Shown here: piece by piece, positions 7,285 to 64,000 of the stretch
Layout: each line of letters opens with the position of its first letter
Numbering within the stretch: position 1 is the first letter of the stretch
From: Oscillospiraceae bacterium
GTDB lineage: Bacteria > Bacillota > Clostridia > Oscillospirales > UBA929
NCBI GenBank assembly: GCA_031550325.1
Contig: JAVBOR010000013.1
Location: forward strand, 27,946-91,945
Direction: 5' to 3'
Length of the DNA: 64,000 nucleotides
Notes under the pieces: generated by a model
Told to the model about the DNA's origin: nothing
Seen by the model: only the letters and a program-made list of their open reading frames with translations
Database searches by the model: none
Translations under genes and position numbers: made by a program

Positions 7285-8187
7285 CTATACTTGCTCCAGT
7301 AGGCGGATGTAATGATTGGCCTCACGCAAAACGTGGTCGGCCAGTAGCGGCAGAATGATGGAACGGATCTTGCATTCAGCGATGCCCTTCGTGCCCGCGG
7401 TTTTGAAGTCGCGGTACTTTTTGGTCTCTTCAAGTGTTTCGTTGGTAACCATATTCAACATGGAATCGGTGGACGCTTTTGCTTTCTCTAAAAGCTCGGC
7501 ATAGTCCTGCGCAAAATTGTTTGATGTATTGATTAGCTCGCCCTCAGACGGATCGAGAAGTCCTCGGATAAACAGCGCGTGCTCCAGCATGATTTGATCC
7601 CAGAACAGCTCCATGTTCTTGGTGGTTTCCTCCATACCCTGACCGCTTTCCAGCGCCTGCAAATGTGACCTGTACAGCTTCGCTTCACGAAGAATATGGT
7701 CTAGCAGCAGCGGATAATTCGCTGTGAACATATTGCAGGACAACACGGCATTCAGAATTCTGGCCTTGAAATCGATTAGTCCGTCAAGAAGTGGCCTTAC
7801 GTTTGCGTTGAGGGCGCGGACACTTCGCATAAGCTCAGGCGATATATTTGGATTGGTCGACCCGTAAAGCCGCGATTCCATAGCGGTCAGACTCTCATTG
7901 ATGGGGATGCCGGTAAAATTCTCTGTTTTTTGCTCGCTGCCGCGCGTGTAATCGGTGACCAACTCTCCTGATTGCACGACCGCATTACTGACCACCCCAT
8001 TGCCGAGTTGGATGGCGTTATGTAAAATCTGTTCAAACTGGGTTTTGAAACGTTCGGCTGTTTGGGCAAAGTCTTTATTTTTCGGCGTAAAGCCCGCCTC
8101 CAGAAACAGAGCATGCTCTTTCATGATACGCCCGAAAAACAGATGCAATTCAAGAGAAGATACGACGTATTGCTGTTGGCTGATCAT
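7285..8187 (-). CDS. DUF2935 domain protein (two tandem helical repeats)
   Basis: 300-aa ORF. The motif EL.FW/LFFGRIM.EHALF.. occurs twice (LHLFFGRIMKEHALFLEAG and MELFWDQIMLEHALFIRGL), as in the DUF2935 family of Firmicutes. Confidence 0.7.
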   Translation of the reverse strand: MISQQQYVVSSLELHLFFGRIMKEHALFLEAGFTPKNKDFAQTAERFKTQFEQILHNAIQLGNGVVSNAVVQSGELVTDYTRGSEQKTENFTGIPINESLTAMESRLYGSTNPNISPELMRSVRALNANVRPLLDGLIDFKARILNAVLSCNMFTANYPLLLDHILREAKLYRSHLQALESGQGMEETTKNMELFWDQIMLEHALFIRGLLDPSEGELINTSNNFAQDYAELLEKAKASTDSMLNMVTNETLEETKKYRDFKTAGTKGIAECKIRSIILPLLADHVLREANHYIRLLEQV

Positions 8188-8203: not shown

Positions 8204-8659
8204 TTAATAATAATATCCGGGATACGGACGGTGCCCGCGCTTGTCGAAGAGCTCACGAAGCAACAGAATTCGGACGATATCCCGCAGGGAATTACGGTTG
8301 TGATGCCTCCTGCGTCGCCTTTGATAAGGATTGCCGCCAAAGCCGAACTGCACTGGTGCCGCTTCGGCCACGGTCTCATTGTCGTCGTCTTCATACCACA
8401 TGCCGCTGTTTTTGATAATTGCATCTACCGTAGAATTTATAATATCCGGGGTAGGCTGATACCCTGACGCATTCAATCTTTCCACAGCATCGGTGATCAT
8501 TGGATATATCTCATGGTAGATTTCCGGATACTCGTTTTCCATCGATTCCGAGGAGGGCGCCAAGCTCGCCTGCATGACAGGTGCGACAGGTTGTACTGTC
8601 AATCCGGTTTCATTTGAAAGTGGTATGGAAACAAAAGGTTTGCCGTTTTCTATGTCCAT
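8204..8659 (-). CDS. hypothetical protein, possibly spore-coat associated
   Basis: 151-aa ORF 16 nt upstream of the DUF2935 gene. Acidic middle, basic RRRRRHHNR stretch, Tyr/Pro/Gly C-terminal tail (RPYPGYYY). RBS AGAAAGGGA precedes the ATG. Confidence 0.5.
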   Translation of the reverse strand: MDIENGKPFVSIPLSNETGLTVQPVAPVMQASLAPSSESMENEYPEIYHEIYPMITDAVERLNASGYQPTPDIINSTVDAIIKNSGMWYEDDDNETVAEAAPVQFGFGGNPYQRRRRRHHNRNSLRDIVRILLLRELFDKRGHRPYPGYYY

Positions 8660-8703: not shown

Positions 8704-8730
8704 TAGTATATGACTGCCGAAACATTTTGT
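8704..8730 (-). promoter_or_regulatory. candidate sigma-K-type sporulation promoter
   Basis: The reverse strand reads AC-16 nt-CATATACTA (consensus AC-16/17-CATA---TA), about 45 nt upstream of the 8659 start codon. Confidence 0.25.
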
Positions 8731-46629: not shown

Positions 46630-47727
46630 CTACGGCGCGTTGATCTGCCTGGACTTCTTCATATGCAGGGCGATGGCCGAGCAGATGAACAGCGCGATGG
46701 GGAACAGCACCTGAAACGGAAGGGCAACCGCCTGTATCAGCTGCAGGCCCGTCTGCAGCTCGGAGATCTGGCCGTAGATAAACAGGGAGAAGACAGAGCA
46801 CATCAGCGCCGCCGGGGCGAAGAACACCTGCCCGTCCGGCATATTGACGAGCTTTGCAAGGCCCTGGCAGCCCGCAAAGACGCACAGCGTGAACTTAAGG
46901 ATGCTTGAGATGAGAACGAACCCCAGCGTGAGCGCTTCAAGGCGCTGGATAAATTGTCCAATCTTGGTAAAGTTTGCCGACTCAAAGGAGGGGAAGTAGA
47001 AGGAGCTGAATGCGTTGCCCCCCAAAACCAGGATGTCGCGAAGCGCGATGACCAGAATAATCAGGTATGCCGCCGCAAAGCCCCCGAAGAACGCCTTGTT
47101 TGTGTTGGGATTTGTCTTTGCAAACGGCAAAACGGCCAGCAGGATCACAGCCTCGCTGAAGGGGAAGGAAAAAATGGCGCTGACCTCCTCGGCCATCTTG
47201 TGAAAGGGCGTGGCGAGCATGGGATACAGGTAGTCCGTGTTAAGGCTGGGAACGGCCGTAATCAGCGTAAAAATCAAAACTGCCGTGGTCACCAAAAAGA
47301 AGAGTGCGCTGAACCGGCCAATGGCGCGCAGGCCCTTTTTCAGCAAATAGATGCCGGAGACGCAGCACATGAGGCTGACCATCAGCTGGGGCGTTTCGGG
47401 CAGAGCGATAATGGTCACAGCCTGCGTATAGTTGCGAATGAAGAGCGCGCCGAAGATAAAGATATACAGCGTATACAGGGCGACCACGATCTTCCCGAAC
47501 AGCGCCCCGAACCGCTCGGTGATGATGTCAAACAGGGTTTTCCCCGGATTCATCTTCAGCAGGCGCATAAATACGAGCAGGAGCGGGAGGAAAATCACGC
47601 CCGCCATCAGCAGGGCCAGCCAGTGATCCTGCTTGGTGGCGTGCCGTATGGACACAAGCGAGCTGCCCTCCCAAAACAAAACGGAGATGCAGAAGATCTG
47701 AAACGTTGTGAGCCGGACCTTGCTCAT
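46630..47727 (-). CDS. germinant receptor B subunit (GerAB/GerKB, APC-superfamily permease-like)
   Basis: Trimmed to the second ATG (comp. 47727): MSKVRLTTFQIFCISVLFWEGSSLV. Ten hydrophobic helices, typical Spore_permease sequence. Confidence 0.8.
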   Translation of the reverse strand: MSKVRLTTFQIFCISVLFWEGSSLVSIRHATKQDHWLALLMAGVIFLPLLLVFMRLLKMNPGKTLFDIITERFGALFGKIVVALYTLYIFIFGALFIRNYTQAVTIIALPETPQLMVSLMCCVSGIYLLKKGLRAIGRFSALFFLVTTAVLIFTLITAVPSLNTDYLYPMLATPFHKMAEEVSAIFSFPFSEAVILLAVLPFAKTNPNTNKAFFGGFAAAYLIILVIALRDILVLGGNAFSSFYFPSFESANFTKIGQFIQRLEALTLGFVLISSILKFTLCVFAGCQGLAKLVNMPDGQVFFAPAALMCSVFSLFIYGQISELQTGLQLIQAVALPFQVLFPIALFICSAIALHMKKSRQINAP

Positions 47728-47751
47728 GGGTGCGCCCCCCTTATAAGATAC

Positions 47752-47797
47752 TGTCAAAGAACATTTTTCCTTTGACAAAGACCGTAGACAAACCCCG
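47752..47797. repeat. degenerate member of the palindromic repeat family, copy C
   Basis: TGTCAAAG-N10-CTTTGACA (47752-47777) followed by GTAGACAAACC, a module also present in copy E. It lies between two genes of the ger operon. Confidence 0.55.
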
Positions 47798-47808
47798 CAG
47801 TCGCACGG

Positions 47809-48018
47809 TCAGGAGGAGAACAGGGCGGGAAAGGCCTGATACAGCAGGTCGAAGATCGAAACGGCGGGCGTGCTGAGAAAGAGCAGCCCGGCAATGCCAA
47901 GCGTCAACAGGGACAGCACGAGGTAGACCACGGCCTCCTTGCGGGGCCAGGGGAGCATCTTCAGGTCCGCCGCAAAGCAGACGGCGAGCACAAGGGCTAC
48001 GGCGAGAAACAGAAGCAT
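47809..48018 (-). CDS. small two-TM membrane protein inside the ger operon (D-subunit-like)
   Basis: 69 aa, two hydrophobic helices (LLFLAVALVLAVCFAA and VVYLVLSLLTLGIAGLLFL). Its start lies 17 nt downstream of the GerC-type gene's stop (48036), and it is followed by the B-subunit gene. Confidence 0.5.
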   Translation of the reverse strand: MLLFLAVALVLAVCFAADLKMLPWPRKEAVVYLVLSLLTLGIAGLLFLSTPAVSIFDLLYQAFPALFSS

Positions 48019-48035
48019 ACGCGTTCAACCCCCTG

Positions 48036-49178
48036 TCAATTCGAGGCGATGCTGTTGTTCTTGAGGTCGAGCACAACATGGACCGAAACCGGGATTTCTG
48101 TGAAAAAGCTTTGCCAGTTGTCCTCGCCGACGCTTTTCCAGAGCTCGCGCTGCGTTGTCTGCACCCTCGCGCCCATTCCAAAGACGTCCGTGCCGAACTG
48201 CGTCTGTATCTTTTTCACGACGGTCAGGATTTTTTCCGAGATGTCGTCCTGCATCTCCGTCATAAGCGTATCACGGTCGGCCGAGGGGATGGTCAGTGCG
48301 GTGCCGTTGACGTCGATGACGTATCCGGTCAGATGCACGTCCAGGTTCATGCGCAGCTGACCGTTCTCCAAGACGGGACTGGCGTCCGACTGGATGTCGC
48401 TGTATCTGAGGGTGATCCTCCCAAGGTCCTCACTCTCGTGCACCAGCGAGCCGCCTTTCCCGTTTTCTGTGGCGATCGTGCAGAATTGAGCCTCGTCGGG
48501 CGACAGATACCCGCGCAGAAAGGACTCTTGAAGGACGGCGATGCCGTCCAGATCGGCCTTGCTGCTCTCTTTGTCCTCAATAACCGTGATGGCCGGCAGC
48601 AGCATGCAGCCCCCGCCGATGGCCTCGTTGTAAAGCGGGCAAAGCTTCGCCTGCACAGATTTTCCCCAATAGGAGTGCTGTTGGTCGATGGCTCTGGACA
48701 GGTTTCGGGAGATCAGAACCTCCTGCTGGCTTTTTTGGTGCAGGATGTCCTGTGCGCTGCAGTTCTTGCTGACTGCGACCATGGTGGTGGCATGAAGGTC
48801 GGACGTGTGCATGCAGACCTTCAAAAGCGGCGCGATGCTCTCGGTTTTGGCGATCTCCTCGCTGATGATCATGATGCTGGCGTGGCGGAGATATATGCGA
48901 CCGCCGACGAAGTTGACCAGCCCGCCGACCGCTTCAGCAAGCGTCCTGCCCTCGAAATCATAGACGACCGACTCGGTCGTCCCGGATTTGATGTCCGCTG
49001 CGGGCTTTGCGATTTCGGCCGTAATGTGATAGCCCCCGTCATTACCTGGGTCTACGCCCAGTCCGGCAACGACGATGAGATCCTCAATATTGGTGTAGTC
49101 GCAGGCGCACAGTCCGGCGCATAAAAAAGCCGCCAGAATGACACACGCTGCCCGGCGTCCCATGCTGAGTCGGAGCAT
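48036..49178 (-). CDS. germinant receptor C subunit lipoprotein (GerAC family)
   Basis: Track ORF trimmed to the ATG at comp. 49178, 8 nt after GGAGGG. MLRLSMGRRAACVILAAFLCAGLCACDY has a lipobox. Ger(x)C-like body. Confidence 0.8.
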   Translation of the reverse strand: MLRLSMGRRAACVILAAFLCAGLCACDYTNIEDLIVVAGLGVDPGNDGGYHITAEIAKPAADIKSGTTESVVYDFEGRTLAEAVGGLVNFVGGRIYLRHASIMIISEEIAKTESIAPLLKVCMHTSDLHATTMVAVSKNCSAQDILHQKSQQEVLISRNLSRAIDQQHSYWGKSVQAKLCPLYNEAIGGGCMLLPAITVIEDKESSKADLDGIAVLQESFLRGYLSPDEAQFCTIATENGKGGSLVHESEDLGRITLRYSDIQSDASPVLENGQLRMNLDVHLTGYVIDVNGTALTIPSADRDTLMTEMQDDISEKILTVVKKIQTQFGTDVFGMGARVQTTQRELWKSVGEDNWQSFFTEIPVSVHVVLDLKNNSIASN

Positions 49179-49225
49179 AAGCGTCTCCCTCCTCTCCCAA
49201 TTGTTCGCGCGGCGGCTCGCCCGAC

Positions 49226-50734
49226 TCACTTCTGCCGTCTGGTGTTCCTGGCGAACTGTGGCCGCGTCTTCATATTCCAGATCGGGGCGCGGAAGAGGAC
49301 GTCCTGCGCCATGTTGGATTTGAGCGTGGTAAGTCCGCTCATATAGTCGCAGCCGAAGGACTGCAGGGAAAGCAGGTGGATGCTGACCATGACCATGACG
49401 AAAAAGTATCCGAACAGCCCGACGAACGCCGACATCAGCAGAGCTCCGGTTCTGATGAGCAGCCCCGCGCTGCTGAGCTTGGAAACCAGCATGCCGGTGA
49501 TTCCGGTCAGGGCCACCACGATGAGGGTGGGCGCGCCGATGATCTTGGCCTCGATGGCGGCCTGACCCACCACAAGGCCGCCGACGATGCTGAGGGCCTG
49601 ACCGATTTTGTTGGAGGAGCGGATGCCGGCCTCCCGCAGGACGTCAAAGACGACGAGCAGGCCGAGGCACTCCAGAATGACGGGAAACGGCGTGTGGGAC
49701 GAGGCCGCGGACAGCACGGCGATCAGCGAGTCCGGGATCATTTCCTGGTGGAACCCGACCAGCGAGACGTAAACGGCGGGAACGCTGATGGTAAGGAAAA
49801 ACGCCAGAAACCGAACGAGTCTTCCCGCGCTGGAGTAATAAAAGTTGACATAGTAGTCGTCGGGCGCCTGAAAGTTCTCAATCAGCAGATACGGAACCGT
49901 CATCACCAGCGGACTGCCATCCACCACAACGCCCACACGGCCCTCCAGCAGCCGCGCGGCGACAATGTCGGGCTTTTCGGACGAGCCGGTTGTTTTAAAC
50001 GGGGACAGGCGGCTGTCCTTCACAAACTCCTCGAGGTAGTTTGTGCAAAGAACGCTGTCCGTTGAAATCTGGGACAGCCTGTTTCGGAGCTCCTTGAGTA
50101 CGCTCTTGTCCACCAGAGAGTCCAGGTAGCACAGGCACACCCTGGTCTCGGTGCGCGTTCCCAGCCGGAGAAAGCTGAGCTTCAGATCGCTCGTCTGGAG
50201 CCTGCGCCGGATCAGGCTGAGGTTGACCATGAACGACTCGGTAAAGCCCTCGCGCGGGCCGCGCAGGCTTTTTTCGTTGTCGGGCTCTATGACGGCCCGG
50301 GTGGCATAGCCCTTAGAGCCGACAAGCAGCGCCTCCTGCGAGCCGTCGGTGAGGACGAGCGTGTCGCCGCACAAGACCGTGCTGACACAGGTTTTGATAT
50401 CCTGAGAGCGCTTGACCTCGTTTCCGCTGACCAGTTTGGACTGAATATCGTCCAGCGTGGTTCCGGTGATATCCAGACGCTTGCGCTCAAACGAACAGAT
50501 GGGACGGATGACGGACAGCACAACCATCTGCGTGTTAATCATCCCGTCCACATAGACGGCGGCGCAGCGAATCTTTCCGTCCCGGCTTTCAAACTCCCGG
50601 ATGATGACGGCGTCGTCGCCGGTAAAAATCGTGCGGATCATGCTCAGATTCTCCGCGAGGCTCTCCGACATGCGGAATGCGCTGTAGTCAACCATGCCTT
50701 CCAGGTTGGTCTGCGGCTGTTTTGAACCGGCCAC
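49226..50734 (-). CDS. germinant receptor A subunit (GerAA family)
   Basis: 502 aa. GTG start 8 nt after GGGGG. Soluble N-terminal domain plus C-terminal TM bundle (GerA Pfam-like: ...LIENFQAPDDYY...PFPVILE...). Confidence 0.85.
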   Translation of the reverse strand: MAGSKQPQTNLEGMVDYSAFRMSESLAENLSMIRTIFTGDDAVIIREFESRDGKIRCAAVYVDGMINTQMVVLSVIRPICSFERKRLDITGTTLDDIQSKLVSGNEVKRSQDIKTCVSTVLCGDTLVLTDGSQEALLVGSKGYATRAVIEPDNEKSLRGPREGFTESFMVNLSLIRRRLQTSDLKLSFLRLGTRTETRVCLCYLDSLVDKSVLKELRNRLSQISTDSVLCTNYLEEFVKDSRLSPFKTTGSSEKPDIVAARLLEGRVGVVVDGSPLVMTVPYLLIENFQAPDDYYVNFYYSSAGRLVRFLAFFLTISVPAVYVSLVGFHQEMIPDSLIAVLSAASSHTPFPVILECLGLLVVFDVLREAGIRSSNKIGQALSIVGGLVVGQAAIEAKIIGAPTLIVVALTGITGMLVSKLSSAGLLIRTGALLMSAFVGLFGYFFVMVMVSIHLLSLQSFGCDYMSGLTTLKSNMAQDVLFRAPIWNMKTRPQFARNTRRQK

Positions 50735-53622: not shown

Positions 53623-53657
53623 GTTTATAATATTGTTTTATTTCAGGAGGATTGTTT

Positions 53658-54404
53658 ATGAATAAAGAAATTCAGAGCCTGACGGTCGAGGAACTAAAAA
53701 ACGGCTTTGTGTTTGAGGAAAAGCGCTGTGCGTATGTCTGTTTGTTCTGCGGCACCGTGTTTGAACGCGGCGTGGTGTTCAAGCAGGGCGGGCGTCTGGT
53801 GGACGCGCAAAAGGCAGCCTGCTTGCATATCCGTGAGGCGCACGACTCGGTTTTTGCCGCACTGCTGCGCGAGGGCAAAAAAAATACCGGATTGACCGAG
53901 GTGCAATCCGACATGCTGTTGGGCTTCTTTGGCGGCGTGTCCGACGGGGAGCTCGCCAGAGGAGCTGGAATCTCGCCGTCAACCGTCCGGTTTCAGCGGT
54001 TCAGCTTTCGTGAAAAGGCCAGGCAGGCCAGGGTGATTCTTGCCCTGGAGGGACTCCTGGAGCACAGACTGGCGTGCGACGAGGCGCCCGAGGTTCACCC
54101 GAACGCGACCATGGTGGATGAGCGCTATATGACCACGGGCACCGAATCGGAAAGGATCGCGGGGAACTTCTTTGTGTCGCTCGATCCTCCGGTACTCAAG
54201 ACGCTCTCTTCCAAGGAAAAAAACAAACTCGTGATCCTGAAGATCATCGCCGGGCAGTTTGAGCCGGGAAAGCACTACACGGAGAAGCAGGTCAACGACA
54301 TCCTCAGGCCAATTTACGGGGACTACGTCTCCATCCGCCGGTATCTGATCGAATACGGGTTCATGGACAGGACGGCCGACGGGCAGGCATACTGGCTGAA
54401 GTAA
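53658..54404 (+). CDS. DUF2087 domain protein with N-terminal Cys/His cluster and HTH (putative regulator)
   Basis: ATG 53658, 7 nt after AGGAGG. N-terminal CAYVCLFCG...HIREAH, HTH-like SDGELARGAGISPSTVRFQRF. The C-terminal KHYTEKQVNDILRPIYGDYVSIRRYLIEYGF segment is DUF2087-like. Confidence 0.6.
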   Translation: MNKEIQSLTVEELKNGFVFEEKRCAYVCLFCGTVFERGVVFKQGGRLVDAQKAACLHIREAHDSVFAALLREGKKNTGLTEVQSDMLLGFFGGVSDGELARGAGISPSTVRFQRFSFREKARQARVILALEGLLEHRLACDEAPEVHPNATMVDERYMTTGTESERIAGNFFVSLDPPVLKTLSSKEKNKLVILKIIAGQFEPGKHYTEKQVNDILRPIYGDYVSIRRYLIEYGFMDRTADGQAYWLK

Positions 54405-54413
54405 GCGCCTTGG

Positions 54414-54659
54414 CTAACGCCGCGTCCGCACCGCGGTGATTTTGTCGGCGGCAACGCACAGGAAGGCCGGCGACCGGCTTCTTGAGCCGTTGGGGCAGAC
54501 AAGCGTGAGCGCCTGCGGGTCGGCCCTCAGCAAAACTCCGCAAAACGGCGGCGCACCTGACGCCGTGTACACGCTTATCATTTGTCCGACCTTGTCGGCA
54601 AATGGCGACGCCCTGCCGCGGCCGCTGAGCGGATCCGCGTAGTTTTGAACCATCAGCAC
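54414..54659 (-). CDS. small protein (81 aa), paralogue of the N- and C-terminal parts of the Cys/Gly-repeat protein
   Basis: GTG at comp. 54659, 8 nt after AAAGGAGG. MLMVQNYADPLSGRGRASPFADKVGQMISVYTASGAPPFCGVLLRADPQALTLVCP...AADKITAVRTRR. This is the 3' part of track ORF 54414..55289. Confidence 0.45.
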   Translation of the reverse strand: MLMVQNYADPLSGRGRASPFADKVGQMISVYTASGAPPFCGVLLRADPQALTLVCPNGSRSRSPAFLCVAADKITAVRTRR

Positions 54660-54770
54660 CGCGCGCGCCTCCTTTTTTTCAAATCGGGCCACTGGCAACG
54701 CTCTCTGTTCAGCATATGATGAGAGTGTGGCGTTCGTTACGCCCTTTAGAGTTGAAAGGAGACAGAATAC

Positions 54771-55244
54771 ATGGCAGATTGGTACGATTGCCGCGAGGAA
54801 AACTCGGTCAGGCGTACGCTGCGCAGGAATGTTGGCAGAGTCTGTACGGTGTTTACCACGGCTGGCGGCTGCGCCGGCGGGGGGTTTACCGGCCTCGTGG
54901 CCAACGTGAATGACGACAGCTGTAAAGTAATCACCGCGCTCCCGGCCGCAGATGAGCTCCGGCCGTTCGGCCCCGTGAACGGCTGCGGCTGCGGACGCGG
55001 AGACGGAGGCTGCGGCTGCGGACGCGGAGACGGAGGCTGCGGTTGCGGGCGCGGCGACAGAGGCTGCGGAGGCAGAAGCTGTGGCTGCGGAAACGGAAAC
55101 AGAGGCTGCGGGCGCGGAAGCAGGGGCTGCGGCTGCGGAAACAGAGGCAGCGACTGCGGCGGCAGAAGCCGCGGGGATGTGCTGGGCACCTCCTGCACCA
55201 TTCCGATCGATCAGATCACTTGTGTGGCGACCCCTGAGATATAA
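54771..55244 (+). CDS. Cys/Gly-rich repeat protein (157 aa), function unknown
   Basis: ATG 8 nt after AAAGGAGA. The N-terminal VGRVCTVFTTAGG..GFTGLVANVNDDSCKVIT and C-terminal TIPIDQITCVATPEI segments flank GCGCGRGDG x3 plus degenerate G-x repeats (about 20 Cys). Confidence 0.6.
   Translation: MADWYDCREENSVRRTLRRNVGRVCTVFTTAGGCAGGGFTGLVANVNDDSCKVITALPAADELRPFGPVNGCGCGRGDGGCGCGRGDGGCGCGRGDRGCGGRSCGCGNGNRGCGRGSRGCGCGNRGSDCGGRSRGDVLGTSCTIPIDQITCVATPEI
54981..55061 (+). repeat. 27-bp tandem repeat x3 inside the Cys/Gly-rich gene
   Basis: GGCTGCGGCTGCGGACGCGGAGACGGA occurs at 54981-55007 and 55008-55034 (identical). A diverged third unit lies at 55035-55061. Degenerate units continue to about 55175. 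Confidence 0.9.
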
Positions 55245-55282
55245 CGCGCGAGCTCTGCCCAAAGCCGTCGCTGCTCTTCGTT

Positions 55283-55690
55283 TTGTCAAAGAACCAATGG
55301 TTCTTTGACAGTCTCAGGGCGTTCCCGGAGTAAATCCGGGAACGCCCTGAGACTGTAGACAAACCTTCGATTTGTCTGCAAACGGGAGCAGGAACGCGTC
55401 TTTGTGAAGACGCGCATTGGGTGGCTTTCCCGGAGTGAATCCGTGAAAGCGTAGTGGTTCTAATATTTTTCGCCTGTCAAGCCTCATTCGTCCTCGCGGG
55501 CGGTCGTCCTTCGCCTTGCGGCTTTTGAACCGGTCGCCCCTTTGGGGCGCGTGCGCTTCAAAACGCCTCCAGGCTCCAGGCCTACCTGCTCGGGCGCTCG
55601 GCTCTTCTTATTTCAGTCCAGCAGGGACCCGCCGCCTTCGGCGTCAGGCTCAATGGGAAAGCCGAAAAAGGACGAGGACACCTGCGCGCT
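55283..55690. repeat. mosaic palindromic intergenic repeat, copy E (largest composite copy)
   Basis: Modules: TTGTCAAAGAACC-AAT-GGTTCTTTGACA (55283-55310); 18-bp perfect hairpin (55311-55353); GTAGACAAA..TTTGTCTGC (55354-55380); CGCGTCTT-TGTG-AAGACGCG (55395-55414); GCTTTCCCGGAGTGAATCCGTGAAAGC (55424-55450). The distal module (55614-55680) matches 7131-7204. Confidence 0.85.
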
Positions 55691-55814
55691 GTAACGTCAG
55701 GGCCTGCAAGGCGGCGCTTTGATTCGGATTATATCATCTTATCATTTGTCCGGCCCGAAGACAAGCAGCGCCACGCGTCGGAAGCAAACTGTCGGCGTTT
55801 CACCCAAAAAACGC

Positions 55815-55872
55815 TTGACAAAATTCGGATCGGTTGTATACTATACTTATAAGAATTAATTAACTTAATTAA
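55815..55872 (+). promoter_or_regulatory. sigma-A promoter plus AT-rich palindromic operator in front of the ROK operon
   Basis: TTGACA (55815-55820), 16-nt spacer, TATACT (55837-55842), then TTAATTAA-C-TTAATTAA (55856-55872). Confidence 0.55.
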
Positions 55873-59712: not shown

Positions 59713-62700
59713 ATGAAACAAAAGCTCAGCGCCATCCTGTCTCTCGCGCTTGTGCTGACCATGCTCTGCGGGATGATCCCCATGAGCGCGGCAGCCCTGC
59801 CCGCCAACGCGAACTCCGCCGAAACCAAAGGCGGCGAGGCGTTCAACACACCCGAGGAAATTGAGGACATGACTCCGGTCGAACTGGCCATTTCCAAGCT
59901 CAGCGTCGCCTCGCTTGCCGACCGTGAGCCTGTGGTGTACGCGCGCAGACTGTACACCAAGCTGTCCGCCGCGGACAAGGAAAATGTACGCAACTACGCG
60001 CAGTTGCTGGCCGCCGAAGCACAGATTCTGAGGCTGTGGATTCTTGACCTCAACGAAGGCACCGCCGAGGCCCCCGAGATCAGCTTTGGCACCTCCTTTG
60101 GCCTTTGGGTCCTCTTTGAGGAACTGGACGGCATGAACGACACGCAGAAAGCCATTGTCGGCGAGGACGCGATCGAGATCCTCGAGGGGATGCAGGCGTA
60201 CGAGAGCGACGTGCTGTTGCCTGCCTTCAAGGCGGACTACGACCTGGCCAAGGCCGTGGACAAGGCGATCATGGAGATGGATCCGGCCAACACCGATGAG
60301 GTCGCAGCAACCAGAGCCGCCTATGATGGCCTGACAAGCTTTCAGAAGACCATTGTCGTTTACTACGATGTGCTGAAAAAAGCAGAAGGCATTGACGGAG
60401 TTATCCCCGAAAACATCAAGTATGTCGGCACGCGCGCCTCGGGCTACGGCCTGAGCTACTCCAAGGAAGACTGGCAGAGCATTGACGACCAGCTGCAGGG
60501 TTACTTCCCCGATGCGGAGTCTACTTATGTTTGGATTGTGGCGCTGCTCGGCGGCAACAACGGCCCGGCCGGCGGCTGCAACGTCGATGTTGACTTCACC
60601 ACCATCCAGGACGAAGACGGCAAGTACATGGGCAAGACGCAGGCCGAGTGGCTCAGTGAGAACATCGCGTTCCGCGCGCCGAACGCCTCGCAGACTTCCC
60701 AAATTGACTTTTTGAATTATTTTGATGAAAACAACATCAACGTGTATCTGCAGGTCGAATCGGGTTATGCGGACATGAAGACGCTGATGGACATCCTGTA
60801 CGACGTGTACGACATCACCAGTCACAAGAGCGTCAAGGGCTTCGCCATCGACGTCGAGTGGTATTATGGCGTCACCGAGGACTCGGGCATTCCCGTGACA
60901 GACGCGATGGCGCAGAGCTGGAACGAATACCTGTACAGCACCTGGGGCGCCGGCTATAAACTCGTTTTAAAGCACTACGGCCTGACCTGGCTGCCACCCG
61001 CGTACCGCGGCGGCGAGACCGGCGAGGGCTATCTGCCCAGCGAGAAGATTATCTTCTGTGACGACAGCCAGAGCTTCGGCTCGATGGACGGTCTTGTCGG
61101 CGGCGTGTACGACGAAAACGACGTCCGCGACGGCTACCGCCCCGGCTTTGCTCCGGAGTTCCGCATTTTTGCCGACTACTTCCCGGAAAACGAGATCATC
61201 TATCAAATCGGCTACCAGCCCGACCGCCAGTGGTTCTATAACTTTGGCGACCCGGTCATCAAGAACTTTGCCGTGAAGATGGCCGAGGCAACCAACCCGA
61301 ACCAGAATATTGGCATCGCGTGGGTGAACTTCTCGATCAAAGATCCGCTGACCTTCCCGCAGATGCTGAAGACCGACGCCGAGAAAGCCAGCGCGGTCAA
61401 CGGCCTTTTGAACTACCTGTCGGCCACCGGCTCGAACAACCTCGTCGGCCGCCGCCTTACGGGCGACCGTCAGCCGGCGGTGCTGGGCGACGCTTTGTTT
61501 GTCACGCGTGTGCGTCAGCTTTACGACGCGCTGACCGAGGACCAGAAGGCGCGCCTCACGGCCAGCCGCGTGACCAGACTTCTGACGGTTGAGCCCGTTG
61601 CGCTCGACGTGCGCATCGACCTGCAGATTCCCGCCATTGAGGATCTGCGCAAGAAGGATACCGGCGCTGTCTCGGAAGTCTGGGCCATTTATCTGGCGCT
61701 GACTGAAGACCAGAAAGCCGCCGTCCAAAACATCGAAAAGCTTTTGGCCGCCCGTGAGCGCATTGAGCAGCTCAACAACGAGATTGACGACATGAGCGCT
61801 GTTGAGCAGGCCATCGACAACCTTTCGGTCACCTCCGTCGCCGACCGCGAGGCCGTGGTGCGCGCGCGCAGGCTGTACACCAAGCTGTCCAGCGCGGACA
61901 AGGAAAATGTGCGCAACTACAGCAAGCTTCTGACTGCCGAGGCGCGGATGCTTAAGCTGTGGATCCTCGACCTGAACGAGGGCACCATGGAGGCCCCGGC
62001 GATCTCCTTTGAAATGTCGCAGGGTCTGTGGGCGCTGGCCGACCAGCTGAGCGGCATGAGCGACACGCAGAAGGCCATTATCGGCGCCGAAAGCATCGCG
62101 CTGCTGGGCAAGCTGCAGGAACTCCGCGCCGGACACCTGCAAAACTTCAAGGCCCAGTACAATCTGGCCAAGGCCGTTGACAAGGTCATCCTGGCCATGG
62201 ACCCGGCCAATCCCGAAGAGGTCGCGGCTGCCAGAGCCGCCTATGAGGGCCTGACGAGCTTCCAGAAGACCGCCGTTCTGTACTATGAAGTGCTGAAAAA
62301 GGCCGAGGGCATCAACGATCTGATCCCGGCCAACCTCAAGTACATCGGCACGCGCGCCTCGGGCTACGGCCTGAGTTACTCCAAGGAGGACTGGCAGAGC
62401 ATTGACGACCAGCTGCAGGGCTACGCGCCCGACGCGGAGTCGGCTTATGTCTGGATTGTGGCTCTGCTCGGCGGCAACAACGGCCCTCTCGGCGGCTGCA
62501 ACATCGACGTCGACTTTGCCACCATCCAGGACGAAGACGGCAAGTACATGGGCAAGACGCAGGCCGAGTGGCTCAGCGAGAACATTTCGTTCCGCGCGCC
62601 AAACGCCTCGCAGACTTCCCAAATTGACTTTTTGAATTACTTTGACGAAAACAACATCAACGTGTATCTGCAGGTCGAATCGGGCTTCGCGGATATGAAG

Positions 62701-64000
62701 ACGCTGATGGACATCCTGTACGACGTGTACGACGTGGCTGACCATAAGTGCGTTAAGGGCTTTGCCATCGACGTCGAGTGGTATAACGGCGTGACCGAGG
62801 ACTCGGGTCTGCCCGTGACCGACGCGATTGCGCAGAGCTGGAACGAATACCTGTACAGCACCTGGGGCGCAGGCTACAAGCTGTTCCTGAAGCACTTCGG
62901 CTCGACCTGGCTGCCCAAAACCTACCGCGGCGGCGAGACCGGCGAGGGCTATCTGCCCAGCGAAAAGCTCGTGTTCTGCAACGACGCGCAGGGCTACGGC
63001 TCGATGGACGGCAGTGTCGGCGGCATTTACGACGACAGCGCCGCCCGCGACGGCGACGTGATGGGCGCCGGCTCTCAGTTCCGTCTGTTTGCCGACTTCT
63101 ATCCCGAAAACGAAATTGTTCTCCAGATCGGCTACCAGCCCGACCGCCAGTGGTTCTATAACTTTGACGATCCGATCATCAAGAGCTTCGCCGTGAAGCT
63201 GGCCGAGAATATGAACCCCAATCAGGACATCGGCATCGCGTGGGTGAACTTCTCGATCAAAGATCCGCTGACCTTCCCGCAGATGCTGAAGACCGACGCC
63301 GAGAAAGCCAGCGCGGTCAATGGCCTTTTGAACTACCTGTCGGCCACCGGCACGAACAACATCGTCGGACGCCGCCTTACGGGCGACCGTCAGCCGGCGG
63401 TGCTGGGCGACGCGCTGTATGTCACGCGGATGCGCGCGCTTTATGACGCGCTGACCGAAGACCAGAAGGCGCGTCTCACGGCCAGCCGCGTGACCAGACT
63501 CCTGGCGGTTGAGCCCGTTGCGCTCGACGTGCGCATTGACCTGCAGATTCCCGCCATTGAGGATCTGCGAGAGAAAGACGTCGCGACCATCTACACGGTT
63601 TGGGATATCTATCAGGCGCTGACCGAAGACCAGAAAGCCGCTGTCCAAAACATCGAAAAGCTTTTGGCCGCCAAGGCGTTTGCCGACGGCCTGGCCCCGG
63701 TGATCACCCAGTTTGTGGTCAACCCCGGCGCAATTGTGGGCACGCTTGCCGCCAACATCAAGGTCATTGCTGTCGGCCAGAATCTGGAGAGCGCCGTGGT
63801 GTACCTGAAGGACGGCGAGAGTAAGATCGGCTTGACCTCTATTGCCGGCGGCTCGGTGATGATCCGGGTCAACGCGGCTCCGGCTGTGACCGAGGACACG
63901 GTCTATGAAGTGGTCGCCGAGGCAAACGGCGTGGTGCTCAGCGTGGGAACCATTGTAATCAAGCCCTACAGCACCGACATCTGGACGGTCTCGGCCCTGC
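59713..64000 (+). CDS. giant secreted protein (>1429 aa, 3' end outside the window) made of two tandem ~641-aa modules; putative glycan-active enzyme of unknown family
   Basis: ATG 59713 after AGGGAGAG. I translated it codon by codon to 64000 with no stop. It is absent from the ORF track because it is open-ended. Signal peptide MKQKLSAILSLALVLTMLCGMIPMSAAA. Alternating strand/helix pattern with GFAIDVEWY, LQVESG and IGIAWVNF motifs. Confidence 0.85.
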   Translation, partial: MKQKLSAILSLALVLTMLCGMIPMSAAALPANANSAETKGGEAFNTPEEIEDMTPVELAISKLSVASLADREPVVYARRLYTKLSAADKENVRNYAQLLAAEAQILRLWILDLNEGTAEAPEISFGTSFGLWVLFEELDGMNDTQKAIVGEDAIEILEGMQAYESDVLLPAFKADYDLAKAVDKAIMEMDPANTDEVAATRAAYDGLTSFQKTIVVYYDVLKKAEGIDGVIPENIKYVGTRASGYGLSYSKEDWQSIDDQLQGYFPDAESTYVWIVALLGGNNGPAGGCNVDVDFTTIQDEDGKYMGKTQAEWLSENIAFRAPNASQTSQIDFLNYFDENNINVYLQVESGYADMKTLMDILYDVYDITSHKSVKGFAIDVEWYYGVTEDSGIPVTDAMAQSWNEYLYSTWGAGYKLVLKHYGLTWLPPAYRGGETGEGYLPSEKIIFCDDSQSFGSMDGLVGGVYDENDVRDGYRPGFAPEFRIFADYFPENEIIYQIGYQPDRQWFYNFGDPVIKNFAVKMAEATNPNQNIGIAWVNFSIKDPLTFPQMLKTDAEKASAVNGLLNYLSATGSNNLVGRRLTGDRQPAVLGDALFVTRVRQLYDALTEDQKARLTASRVTRLLTVEPVALDVRIDLQIPAIEDLRKKDTGAVSEVWAIYLALTEDQKAAVQNIEKLLAARERIEQLNNEIDDMSAVEQAIDNLSVTSVADREAVVRARRLYTKLSSADKENVRNYSKLLTAEARMLKLWILDLNEGTMEAPAISFEMSQGLWALADQLSGMSDTQKAIIGAESIALLGKLQELRAGHLQNFKAQYNLAKAVDKVILAMDPANPEEVAAARAAYEGLTSFQKTAVLYYEVLKKAEGINDLIPANLKYIGTRASGYGLSYSKEDWQSIDDQLQGYAPDAESAYVWIVALLGGNNGPLGGCNIDVDFATIQDEDGKYMGKTQAEWLSENISFRAPNASQTSQIDFLNYFDENNINVYLQVESGFADMKTLMDILYDVYDVADHKCVKGFAIDVEWYNGVTEDSGLPVTDAIAQSWNEYLYSTWGAGYKLFLKHFGSTWLPKTYRGGETGEGYLPSEKLVFCNDAQGYGSMDGSVGGIYDDSAARDGDVMGAGSQFRLFADFYPENEIVLQIGYQPDRQWFYNFDDPIIKSFAVKLAENMNPNQDIGIAWVNFSIKDPLTFPQMLKTDAEKASAVNGLLNYLSATGTNNIVGRRLTGDRQPAVLGDALYVTRMRALYDALTEDQKARLTASRVTRLLAVEPVALDVRIDLQIPAIEDLREKDVATIYTVWDIYQALTEDQKAAVQNIEKLLAAKAFADGLAPVITQFVVNPGAIVGTLAANIKVIAVGQNLESAVVYLKDGESKIGLTSIAGGSVMIRVNAAPAVTEDTVYEVVAEANGVVLSVGTIVIKPYSTDIWTVSAL
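59866..63672 (+). repeat. in-frame tandem duplication (two units, offset 1920-1923 nt) inside the giant gene
   Basis: 59866-61749 aligns with 61789-63672. This includes a perfectly identical 89-nt run (61312-61400 = 63232-63320). The protein modules are mostly identical by eye. Confidence 0.9.

Follow-up and report, generated by a model that had tools for sequence, protein, structure and literature searches.

Within a 64,000-nucleotide stretch of an Oscillospiraceae bacterium genome (GCA_031550325.1, contig JAVBOR010000013.1, positions 27,946–91,945 of the forward strand; hereafter the window, with positions counted from its first nucleotide), we identified a divergent pair of small genes at 54414–55244 that belongs to an undescribed protein family. 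The proteins are predicted to fold as Sm-like barrels, the longer of the two window proteins carries a Gly/Cys-rich repeat within its barrel, and family genes are commonly preceded by a promoter motif that appears to be of sigma-K type. We hypothesize that both window genes encode structural proteins that are made late in the mother cell, under sigma-K, and form part of the spore coat or exosporium, a reading that we hold to be evenly poised between right and wrong.

The gene pair and its family

The two genes diverge from a short spacer, and each has its own ribosome-binding site (RBS):

54771..55244, + strand: long paralogue P0001, 157 aa, ATG start; predicted Sm-like core split by a Gly/Cys-rich loop
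54414..54659, − strand: short paralogue P0004, 81 aa (MLMVQNY...), from GTG at 54659 to the stop at 54414; predicted Sm-like core, loop-less
54660..54770, no strand: divergent spacer, 111 bp, containing both candidate promoters and both RBSs
54756..54761, + strand: RBS AAGGAG, 9 nt 5' of the long-gene ATG
54668..54673, − strand: RBS AGGAGG, 8 nt 5' of the short-gene GTG

P0001 and P0004 are each 100% identical to a called protein in NCBI-derived assemblies. These gene models agree with an initial annotation of this DNA, which had described two RBS-supported genes diverging from a 111-bp spacer. A terminator-like hairpin with a T-run (54418–54438, + strand) follows the convergent DUF2087 gene (53652–54404) and lies inside the final codons of the 81-aa gene.

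The closest homologue of P0001 is P0002, a 114-aa protein with 48% identity encoded in GCA_031556035.1 (locus L001), which resembles P0001 in its N- and C-terminal segments and has a loop 43 residues shorter. P0002 is divergently paired with a loop-less protein, P0006 (85 aa; 48% identical to P0004, E 4e-22), in surroundings that are wholly different from those in the window, with groES-groEL on one side of the pair and spo0A on the other. Codon comparison of the two loci puts the ratio of nonsynonymous to synonymous substitution rates (dN/dS) at 0.17 in the long gene and at 0.27 in the short one; synonymous sites are close to saturation. Both are genuine genes subject to purifying selection.

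Compared directly by BLASTP, P0001 and P0004 show no similarity that is significant alone (best E 0.05 over 14 residues). An independent family hidden Markov model (HMM), built from 116 relatives with the window proteins and both closest-relative proteins left out, scored P0001 at 60 bits and P0004 at 16.3 bits (E 4e-7 as a single comparison, with the N-terminal half matched). These scores, the predicted topology that the two proteins share, and the recurrence of divergent pairing at L001 support the view that they are distant paralogues, as had been suggested when the pair was first noticed.

A search for homologues had also been suggested at that point, and it recovered a large family. Single-sequence searches found one close relative for each window protein. 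A profile search returned 189 matches, of which the 120 listed all have E <1e-12 and lengths of 81–157 aa; none of these 120 carries a precomputed Pfam domain, and the source name is 'hypothetical protein' in every case. An HMM search run exhaustively on 1.84 billion cluster representatives yielded 410 clusters (50% identity) at E<=1e-3 and 296 at E<=1e-10. A genome scan with one genome per species found 208 family loci, and the 79 listed are all from Bacillota, mostly labelled as Clostridia or its groups; these include Eubacteriaceae, Oscillospiraceae, Lachnospiraceae (Herbinix, Tyzzerella), Defluviitaleaceae, Tissierellaceae, Anaerovoracaceae, and several Clostridium species. Herbinix hemicellulosilytica, Clostridium rhizosphaerae, C. 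prolinivorans, and Clostridiales oral taxon 876 are among the cultured organisms that have the family. A viral-contig scan found no contig with the family. Neither P0001 nor P0004 matched a Pfam or NCBIfam model, a search of PDB sequences with the family profile gave nothing at E<=10, and a full-text literature search on the family signature motifs returned no paper; nothing relevant was found in the literature on DUF2642 or on Sm-like spore proteins. The protein family is undescribed, in keeping with the earlier remark that no described family has this architecture.

The family consensus begins with M..L.ESM.RYIGQTVTIFTTSGGLSGSGFTGVL..VD...V(K/R)LITDIGAPPACP.GS.C, continues with a hypervariable linker, and ends with N(P/W)LGSV..IP...IA.FTHNAI. 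The window pair belongs, together with its one relative, to a rare and divergent branch that has RGDVLGTSCTIP where the family has NPLGSV..IP, and two metagenome scans revealed no further members of this branch.

Divergent pairs occur at 15 loci, and tandem runs of 2–4 family genes are present in several Clostridium genomes. At three loci (L045, L065, and L069, from Clostridiales oral taxon 876, C. rhizosphaerae, and an uncultured Clostridium, respectively), four-gene arrays occupy ~2 kb with a promoter motif for each gene. In 12 genomes with divergent pairs, the members sort into two orthologous types, with a mean core identity of 0.82 and 0.75 within types and 0.65 between them. The residues that distinguish the types include VKLI...W-LGSVT versus VRLL...P-LGAVA. 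Across these 12 genomes, all 24 members had a nearest cross-genome relative of their own type. The pairing is therefore old with both types retained, which suggests that the roles of the two partners are not redundant.

Predicted fold and the Gly/Cys-rich loop

AlphaFold2 (AF2), run for the long protein with a 120-sequence alignment, predicts a helix in P0001 at residues 10–19 and strands at 24–29, 39–46, 50–55, 140–145, and 149–153, with a predicted local distance difference test score (pLDDT) of 75–95 in the ordered blocks. The AF2 model of P0004 has the same five strands, contiguous, with a mean pLDDT of 72. The predicted segments of the long gene and its repeat are as follows:

54795..54938, + strand: N-terminal helix and strands beta1–beta3, residues 9–56, predicted equivalent of the Sm1 half; pLDDT 75–95; family motif GxxxTVFTxxGGxxGxGFTGxL
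54969..55172, + strand: predicted disordered Gly/Cys/Arg low-complexity loop, residues 67–134; pLDDT <50 at 67–121 and 123–134; 13 Cys
54981..55061, + strand: 27-bp repeat array of three in-frame units encoding GCGCGRGDG, GCGCGRGDG, and GCGCGRGDR; units 1 and 2 identical
55188..55229, + strand: strands beta4–beta5, residues 140–153 (TIPIDQITCV), predicted equivalent of the Sm2 half; pLDDT ~92; aligns with family IPxxxIAxF

The conserved N-terminal half and the C-terminal 20 residues are thus predicted to fold together as an Sm/Hfq-like barrel. In this predicted structure, the Gly/Cys repeat occupies the loop between beta3 and beta4, at the junction of the Sm1-like and Sm2-like halves, a position consistent with the earlier proposal that the repeat is an insertion in a barrel. 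Sm proteins are known to tolerate variable loops between these two strands.

Foldseek comparison of the models with the PDB returned nearly exclusively Sm-fold structures, namely Hfq of many bacteria, archaeal and spliceosomal Sm/LSm proteins, Gemin6/7, the LSm domain of EDC3, and Mnx chain E. Matches to the short model had a probability of 1.0, template-modelling (TM) scores of 0.55–0.77, and E values of 2e-3 to 3e-2. The long model matched the same families with weaker scores because its N-terminal half alone aligns. At the level of sequence profiles, LSM and Hfq Pfam models matched neither the window proteins nor 120 relatives at E<=10, and hhalign against B. subtilis Hfq aligned the expected register but with E 0.17 and a probability of 0.4%. 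Weak Pfam matches to RimP_C were detected in 24 of 120 members (best E 1e-3) and to DUF2642 in 3 of 120 (best E 0.076), and P0001 and P0004 matched neither of these models at E<=1. We conclude that the fold is Sm-like, without membership in any described Sm, Hfq, or DUF2642 family. Of the initial description of a small barrel of Sm-like or DUF2642 type, the Sm-like part is upheld by AF2 and Foldseek, and the DUF2642 assignment is not.

Three tandem 27-bp units, two of them identical, had been read from the sequence at the outset; the identical ones are the first two (54981–55007 and 55008–55034), and the third (55035–55061) differs at 4 positions. Tandem Repeats Finder resolved the array as a period of 27 with 3.3 copies and 93% matches, and the units are embedded in a wider repeat region with periods of 21, 42, and 48. 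The loop contains 13 Cys, fewer than the approximately 16 first counted in the insertion, and the whole long protein contains 19. Across the family, the loop is 7 to 98 residues long (median 26). Its residues are 27% Gly, and the second-commonest one depends on lineage and may be N, Y, R, F, S, C, or W. Cys averages 7% and leads the non-Gly residues in just 14 of the 251 loops.

Contigs from two independent short-read assemblies (L083 and L084; Logan SRR23967709 and SRR23967707) are 100% identical to the window and both end at 55010, inside the repeat, and the repeat copy number in the assembly is provisional. Sample SRR23967709 also contains the relative bearing P0002 and P0006. No close relatives informative for repeat-number variation were found in the viral-contig scan or in the two metagenome scans.

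RGD occurs four times in the long protein. Three of these tripeptides lie within the repeats, and the fourth is part of RGDVLG, a sequence also retained in P0002. The tripeptides may be a by-product of the R/G/D-rich composition, and an adhesion role for them is pure speculation.

Promoters and genomic setting

A bipartite motif, AC-N16/17-CATAnnnT, was detected in 78 of 124 non-redundant sequences upstream of family genes compared with 3.6 +/- 1.8 in shuffled sequences, typically 30–60 nt before the start codon. In a comparison within the same loci, it was present in 79 of 126 family upstreams (63%) versus 7 of 357 upstreams of other open reading frames (ORFs; Fisher p 1.7e-48) and in 1.9% of 9,044 background windows. 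A stricter form of the −10 element, CATAnTAT, was found in 62 of the 126 family upstreams and in none of the 357 controls. When the alignment was anchored on the −10 element alone, a −35 element appeared unforced, with G or T at −21, A at −19 (67/87), and C at −17 (61/87), which reads GTAnCA. The resulting family promoter consensus is GTAAC-N16-CATAnTAT. Promoters recognized by sigma-K have AC in the −35 region and a CATATAAT-like −10 element, and those recognized by sigma-E have ATA at −35 (PMC3789822). The family motif appears to be of sigma-K type because it matches this published consensus.

The spacer of the window pair contains one candidate promoter for each gene:

54711..54740, − strand: putative sigma-K-type promoter of the short gene; −35 GTAACG (54740..54735), 16 nt, −10 CATATGCT (54718..54711); conserved in L001
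54692..54720, + strand: candidate promoter of the long gene; −10 CATATGAT (54713–54720), extending to CATATGAT(G/A); 9/12 matches; conserved in L001; assignment uncertain

A CAGCATATG core and a GGCGTTCGTTACG block in the spacer are conserved in L001. The AC-N16/17-CATAnnnT motif occurs at six sites only on both strands of the window, one of which is suitably positioned for the 81-aa gene. Both proposed −10 elements overlap a single palindromic CATATG (54713–54718). On this reading, the −35 element of each gene lies inside the 5' untranslated region of the other, and if both promoters are used, binding of RNA polymerase to them would be mutually exclusive.

Two palindromic features accompany promoters elsewhere in the family. 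In 19 family promoters from Clostridium-type loci, an AGGAC-N(2-8)-GTCC palindrome directly follows the −10 element; it could act as an operator or form a hairpin at the 5' end of the mRNA. In thirteen other loci the −10 is itself palindromic, CATAGTATGTACTA. The loci with the former feature are:

L011, L016, L020, L024, L032, L035, L045, L046, L065, L069, L072, L076, L080: AGGAC-N(2-8)-GTCC palindrome

The window contains a germinant receptor operon directly upstream of copA, and this operon, together with spo0A beside the L001 pair, identifies the host as an endospore former. Along with a non-coding region next to the pair, it is given here:

46630–50734, − strand: GerA-type germinant receptor operon (gerAA-gerAC-gerAB), comprising GerA (49226–50734), GerAC (48036–49229), and a spore permease (46630–47778)
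55250–55870: non-coding DNA, ~620 bp, downstream of the long gene

All-versus-all clustering of flanking ORFs at 80 loci revealed no shared neighbours other than family copies and their antisense artefacts. Recurrent flanking genes are generic (sensor kinases, LacI regulators, ABC transporters, and chemoreceptors), and in a Pfam scan of the 145 genes that directly flank family members at 75 loci, the most frequent family was seen 5 times. Family genes are stand-alone units. Readings of the locus as part of an operon, a biosynthetic cluster, or a metal-resistance system were rejected, as neither the flanking-ORF clustering nor the Pfam scan of the 145 neighbours found a conserved neighbour.

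Several other elements of the window were recorded. In the non-coding region that follows the long gene lie a perfect 13-bp hairpin (55284–55310), an imperfect hairpin of 38 nt (55292–55372), and a 28-nt palindromic element, GGCGTTCCCGGAGTAAATCCGGGAACGC, that is present twice (55318–55345 and 55423–55450). Rfam detected no RNA family near the locus, and these elements could represent a terminator, a repetitive extragenic palindromic (REP)-like element, or a small RNA. Far from the pair, another of the six sigma-K-type motifs in the window (8730..8705, − strand) precedes a 151-aa ORF without a Pfam match (8204–8659, − strand) and then a DUF2935 gene (7285–8187, − strand); to judge by the motif, these genes may form another late-sporulation unit. 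An 893-aa ORF (60967–63648, − strand) has no Pfam match at E<=1e-4.

Possible roles and comparison with known systems

The promoter evidence favours a suggestion made in the initial annotation, that the long protein might resemble Cys-rich spore-surface proteins. The window proteins have, by inspection, no signal peptide or hydrophobic segment, which fits synthesis in the mother-cell cytoplasm. We further propose, more tentatively and as a model that is somewhat improbable as a whole, a spore-envelope unit found throughout Clostridia in which the two Sm-like types assemble as hetero-rings and the loops serve as hypervariable, repeat-driven arms for display or cross-linking. Within the coat or exosporium reading, the Sm-like cores probably oligomerise into rings, as this fold usually does, and the conservation of two types suggests that these could be hetero-rings comparable with MnxE3F3. 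The rings would be deposited on the spore, with flexible loops projecting from them and making contacts between rings. In the window species, the cross-links would be disulfides between CGCG runs, and Tyr-, Trp-, or Arg-rich relatives would use other contacts. In-frame slippage of the 27-bp repeat would drive fast evolution of loop length, which would explain why two of the 27-bp units are identical, why the loop of the nearest relative is 43 residues shorter, and why loop lengths vary so much across the family; the short paralogue would have lost its loop altogether. Under the hetero-ring model, the loops may give each lineage its own spore-surface chemistry, based on Cys and Gly here and on Tyr, Trp, Arg, or Asn elsewhere.

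Several points weigh against a coat or exosporium role. No known coat genes adjoin any family locus. The sigma-K assignment is a consensus match, and the upstream sequences of related genes do not count as independent observations. In the window, the long gene has no AC at 16–17 nt and matches in its −10 element only, and its CTGGCA-17-TATGAT, which is conserved in L001, is also readable as a weak sigma-A-like promoter. The window-pair branch lacks the conserved ACPxGSxC motif of the family, with a core identity of 17–23% within the pair, and because the pair is so divergent, inferences made at the family level may transfer imperfectly to it. We infer expression timing, localisation, ring formation, and cross-linking, and the rings and hetero-oligomers are proposed by analogy from models of monomers.

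The same promoter and phyletic evidence would equally suit a sporulation-linked protein that stays in the cytoplasm or self-assembles outside the coat, such as a mother-cell scaffold, a condensate former, or a protectant acting through its loops. Gly-rich loops with R, Y, W, or F resemble phase-separation-prone sequences, and the placing of family proteins on the spore is itself an inference. However, late sigma-K genes that are stand-alone, multi-copy, and free of enzymatic domains encode predominantly coat or exosporium proteins in studied species (see the sigma-K regulon table of PMC3789822), and given this precedent we consider a non-coat role unlikely.

A hetero-oligomeric RNA chaperone of late sporulation, similar to Hfq or LSm proteins and with the loop as an accessory domain, is improbable. 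Hfq and Sm proteins are the closest solved folds, Arg/Gly-rich (RGG-like) loops are common in RNA-binding proteins, and the paired paralogues recall eukaryotic Sm rings. The absence of an LSM or Hfq Pfam match and the poor hhalign result against B. subtilis Hfq nonetheless argue against this role, and up to 4 tandem copies per genome with hypervariable Cys-, Tyr-, or Trp-rich loops would be atypical of such chaperones.

The initial annotation had also raised metal binding, given the Cys-x-Cys density of the repeat and its distance of 1.3 kb from copA, which encodes two HMA domains. A metallothionein-like Cu/Zn buffer tied to copA could bind metal via the CxC runs, as the loop has its 13 Cys in CGCG runs, and MnxE/MnxF, which are structural analogues, bind Cu (PMC5622069). 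However, adjacency to copA is absent both in the closest relative, with its groEL/spo0A context, and among the 145 neighbours from 75 loci, and the DUF2087 gene, in a different orientation, intervenes between the pair and copA. The proximity to copA is coincidental because neighbours are not conserved across loci. The low family-wide Cys content, the N-, Y-, R-, F-, or W-rich loops of most members, and the loop-less short paralogue also argue against metal buffering, and we regard this role as very unlikely.

Small size, a hypervariable Cys/Gly-rich middle, and several copies per genome are also features of a ribosomally synthesised and post-translationally modified peptide (RiPP) or bacteriocin precursor, in which a conserved leader and a hypervariable core would be matured and exported. 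This is highly improbable, since both termini are conserved and predicted to fold as one domain, and the neighbourhood has no conserved gene for a maturase, a radical-SAM enzyme, or a dedicated transporter.

Lastly, the ORF track shows an Ala/Ser-rich, 291-aa minus-strand ORF (54414–55289) that is the longest at the site and amounts to the 81-aa gene prolonged upstream through the antisense of the repeat. That it is the true gene and the 157-aa ORF spurious is next to impossible, since conservation is confined to its last 81 codons, its counterpart in L001 ends after 98 codons, nothing in Pfam rises above noise, and the plus-strand frame has homologues at 208 loci with the low dN/dS reported above. 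In this frame, the antisense of the GGN/TGC-rich repeat is free of stop codons, and GC-rich repeats of this kind keep antisense frames open by composition, as in a second antisense ORF of the same origin at the locus (151 aa, Pro/Gln-rich). The 291-aa ORF was thus rejected as a gene and is an artefact. There is a lesson here for annotation, as naive ORF tracks prefer antisense ORFs over GGN/TGC repeats to the true small genes, and such repeats also fragment short-read assemblies.

A structural role in the coat or exosporium would bear on the spore coats of Clostridia, about which little is understood. Clostridia retain few of the coat proteins of Bacillus, and the characterised clostridial coat components are few (CdeC/M, CsxA/C, and BclA). 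If correct, the proposal would add a new fold to the small number of self-assembling spore-envelope proteins and would mean that an ancient RNA-chaperone fold has been reused as a structural lattice unit. The loops would be a natural case of repeat-driven diversification of spore-surface chemistry, and the promoter motif and family HMM would mark late mother-cell genes in uncultured Clostridia of the gut and of termites.

Among known systems, Sm, LSm, and Hfq proteins share with the family an N-terminal helix, five bent strands, and a variable segment between beta3 and beta4 (TM ~0.6), and an Hfq engineered with a long L4 loop (PDB 6xyj) is among the Foldseek matches. They differ in that there is no sequence or profile similarity and RNA-binding residues are not identifiable, and the present family has a far longer loop (up to 98 residues) and genes with sporulation-type promoters. 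DUF2642 (PF10842) and RimP_C (PF17384), the latter an SH3 domain according to its Pfam description, are likewise small beta-barrels with sub-threshold matches on a G-x-V-x-V...G-x-L...D pattern. Unlike these, the present family has a loop-split barrel with a conserved FTHNAI C-terminus in the family core, and it has no counterpart of the RimP N-terminal domain.

MnxE/MnxF, which serve as accessory subunits in the Mn oxidase of Bacillus sp. PL-12 spores (PDB 9bxa chain E), are the top or near-top structural match of both models. MnxE3F3, part of a spore-associated enzyme, is a hexamer in which two small paralogues alternate (PMC5622069), and the present family also consists of two small paralogues, with a spore association that is proposed here. 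In contrast, a search with the family profile against the PDB found no sequence similarity to MnxE/MnxF, and no multicopper oxidase is present among the 145 neighbours; Mnx comes from Bacillus rather than Clostridia, and MnxE/MnxF have no low-complexity loop.

In composition and setting, the closest parallels are CdeC/CdeM of C. difficile, CsxA/CsxC of C. sporogenes, and CotY/ExsY of Bacillus, which are also Cys-rich, lack a signal peptide, and are encoded by stand-alone genes in spore formers. Cooperative disulfides in ordered Cys-rich lattices have been put forward, as outlined in a preprint, as a general strategy of spore envelopes (bioRxiv 10.64898/2026.09.03.749163). The CdeC, CsxA, and CotY groups differ from the present family in being larger, with unrelated sequences and folds (e.g., the SPOCS domain), and in that the spore location of the present family is a prediction. 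Bacillus CotG, CotC/CotU, and the Gly/Tyr-rich YeeK offer a further parallel, with fast-evolving in-frame repeats, composition-driven cross-linking, and late mother-cell promoters, but they have no folded Sm-like core and no homology to the family described here. This undescribed family would be of a broadly known kind, that of low-complexity, Cys-rich spore-envelope proteins, built on an unexpected Sm-like scaffold and kept in conserved paired types.

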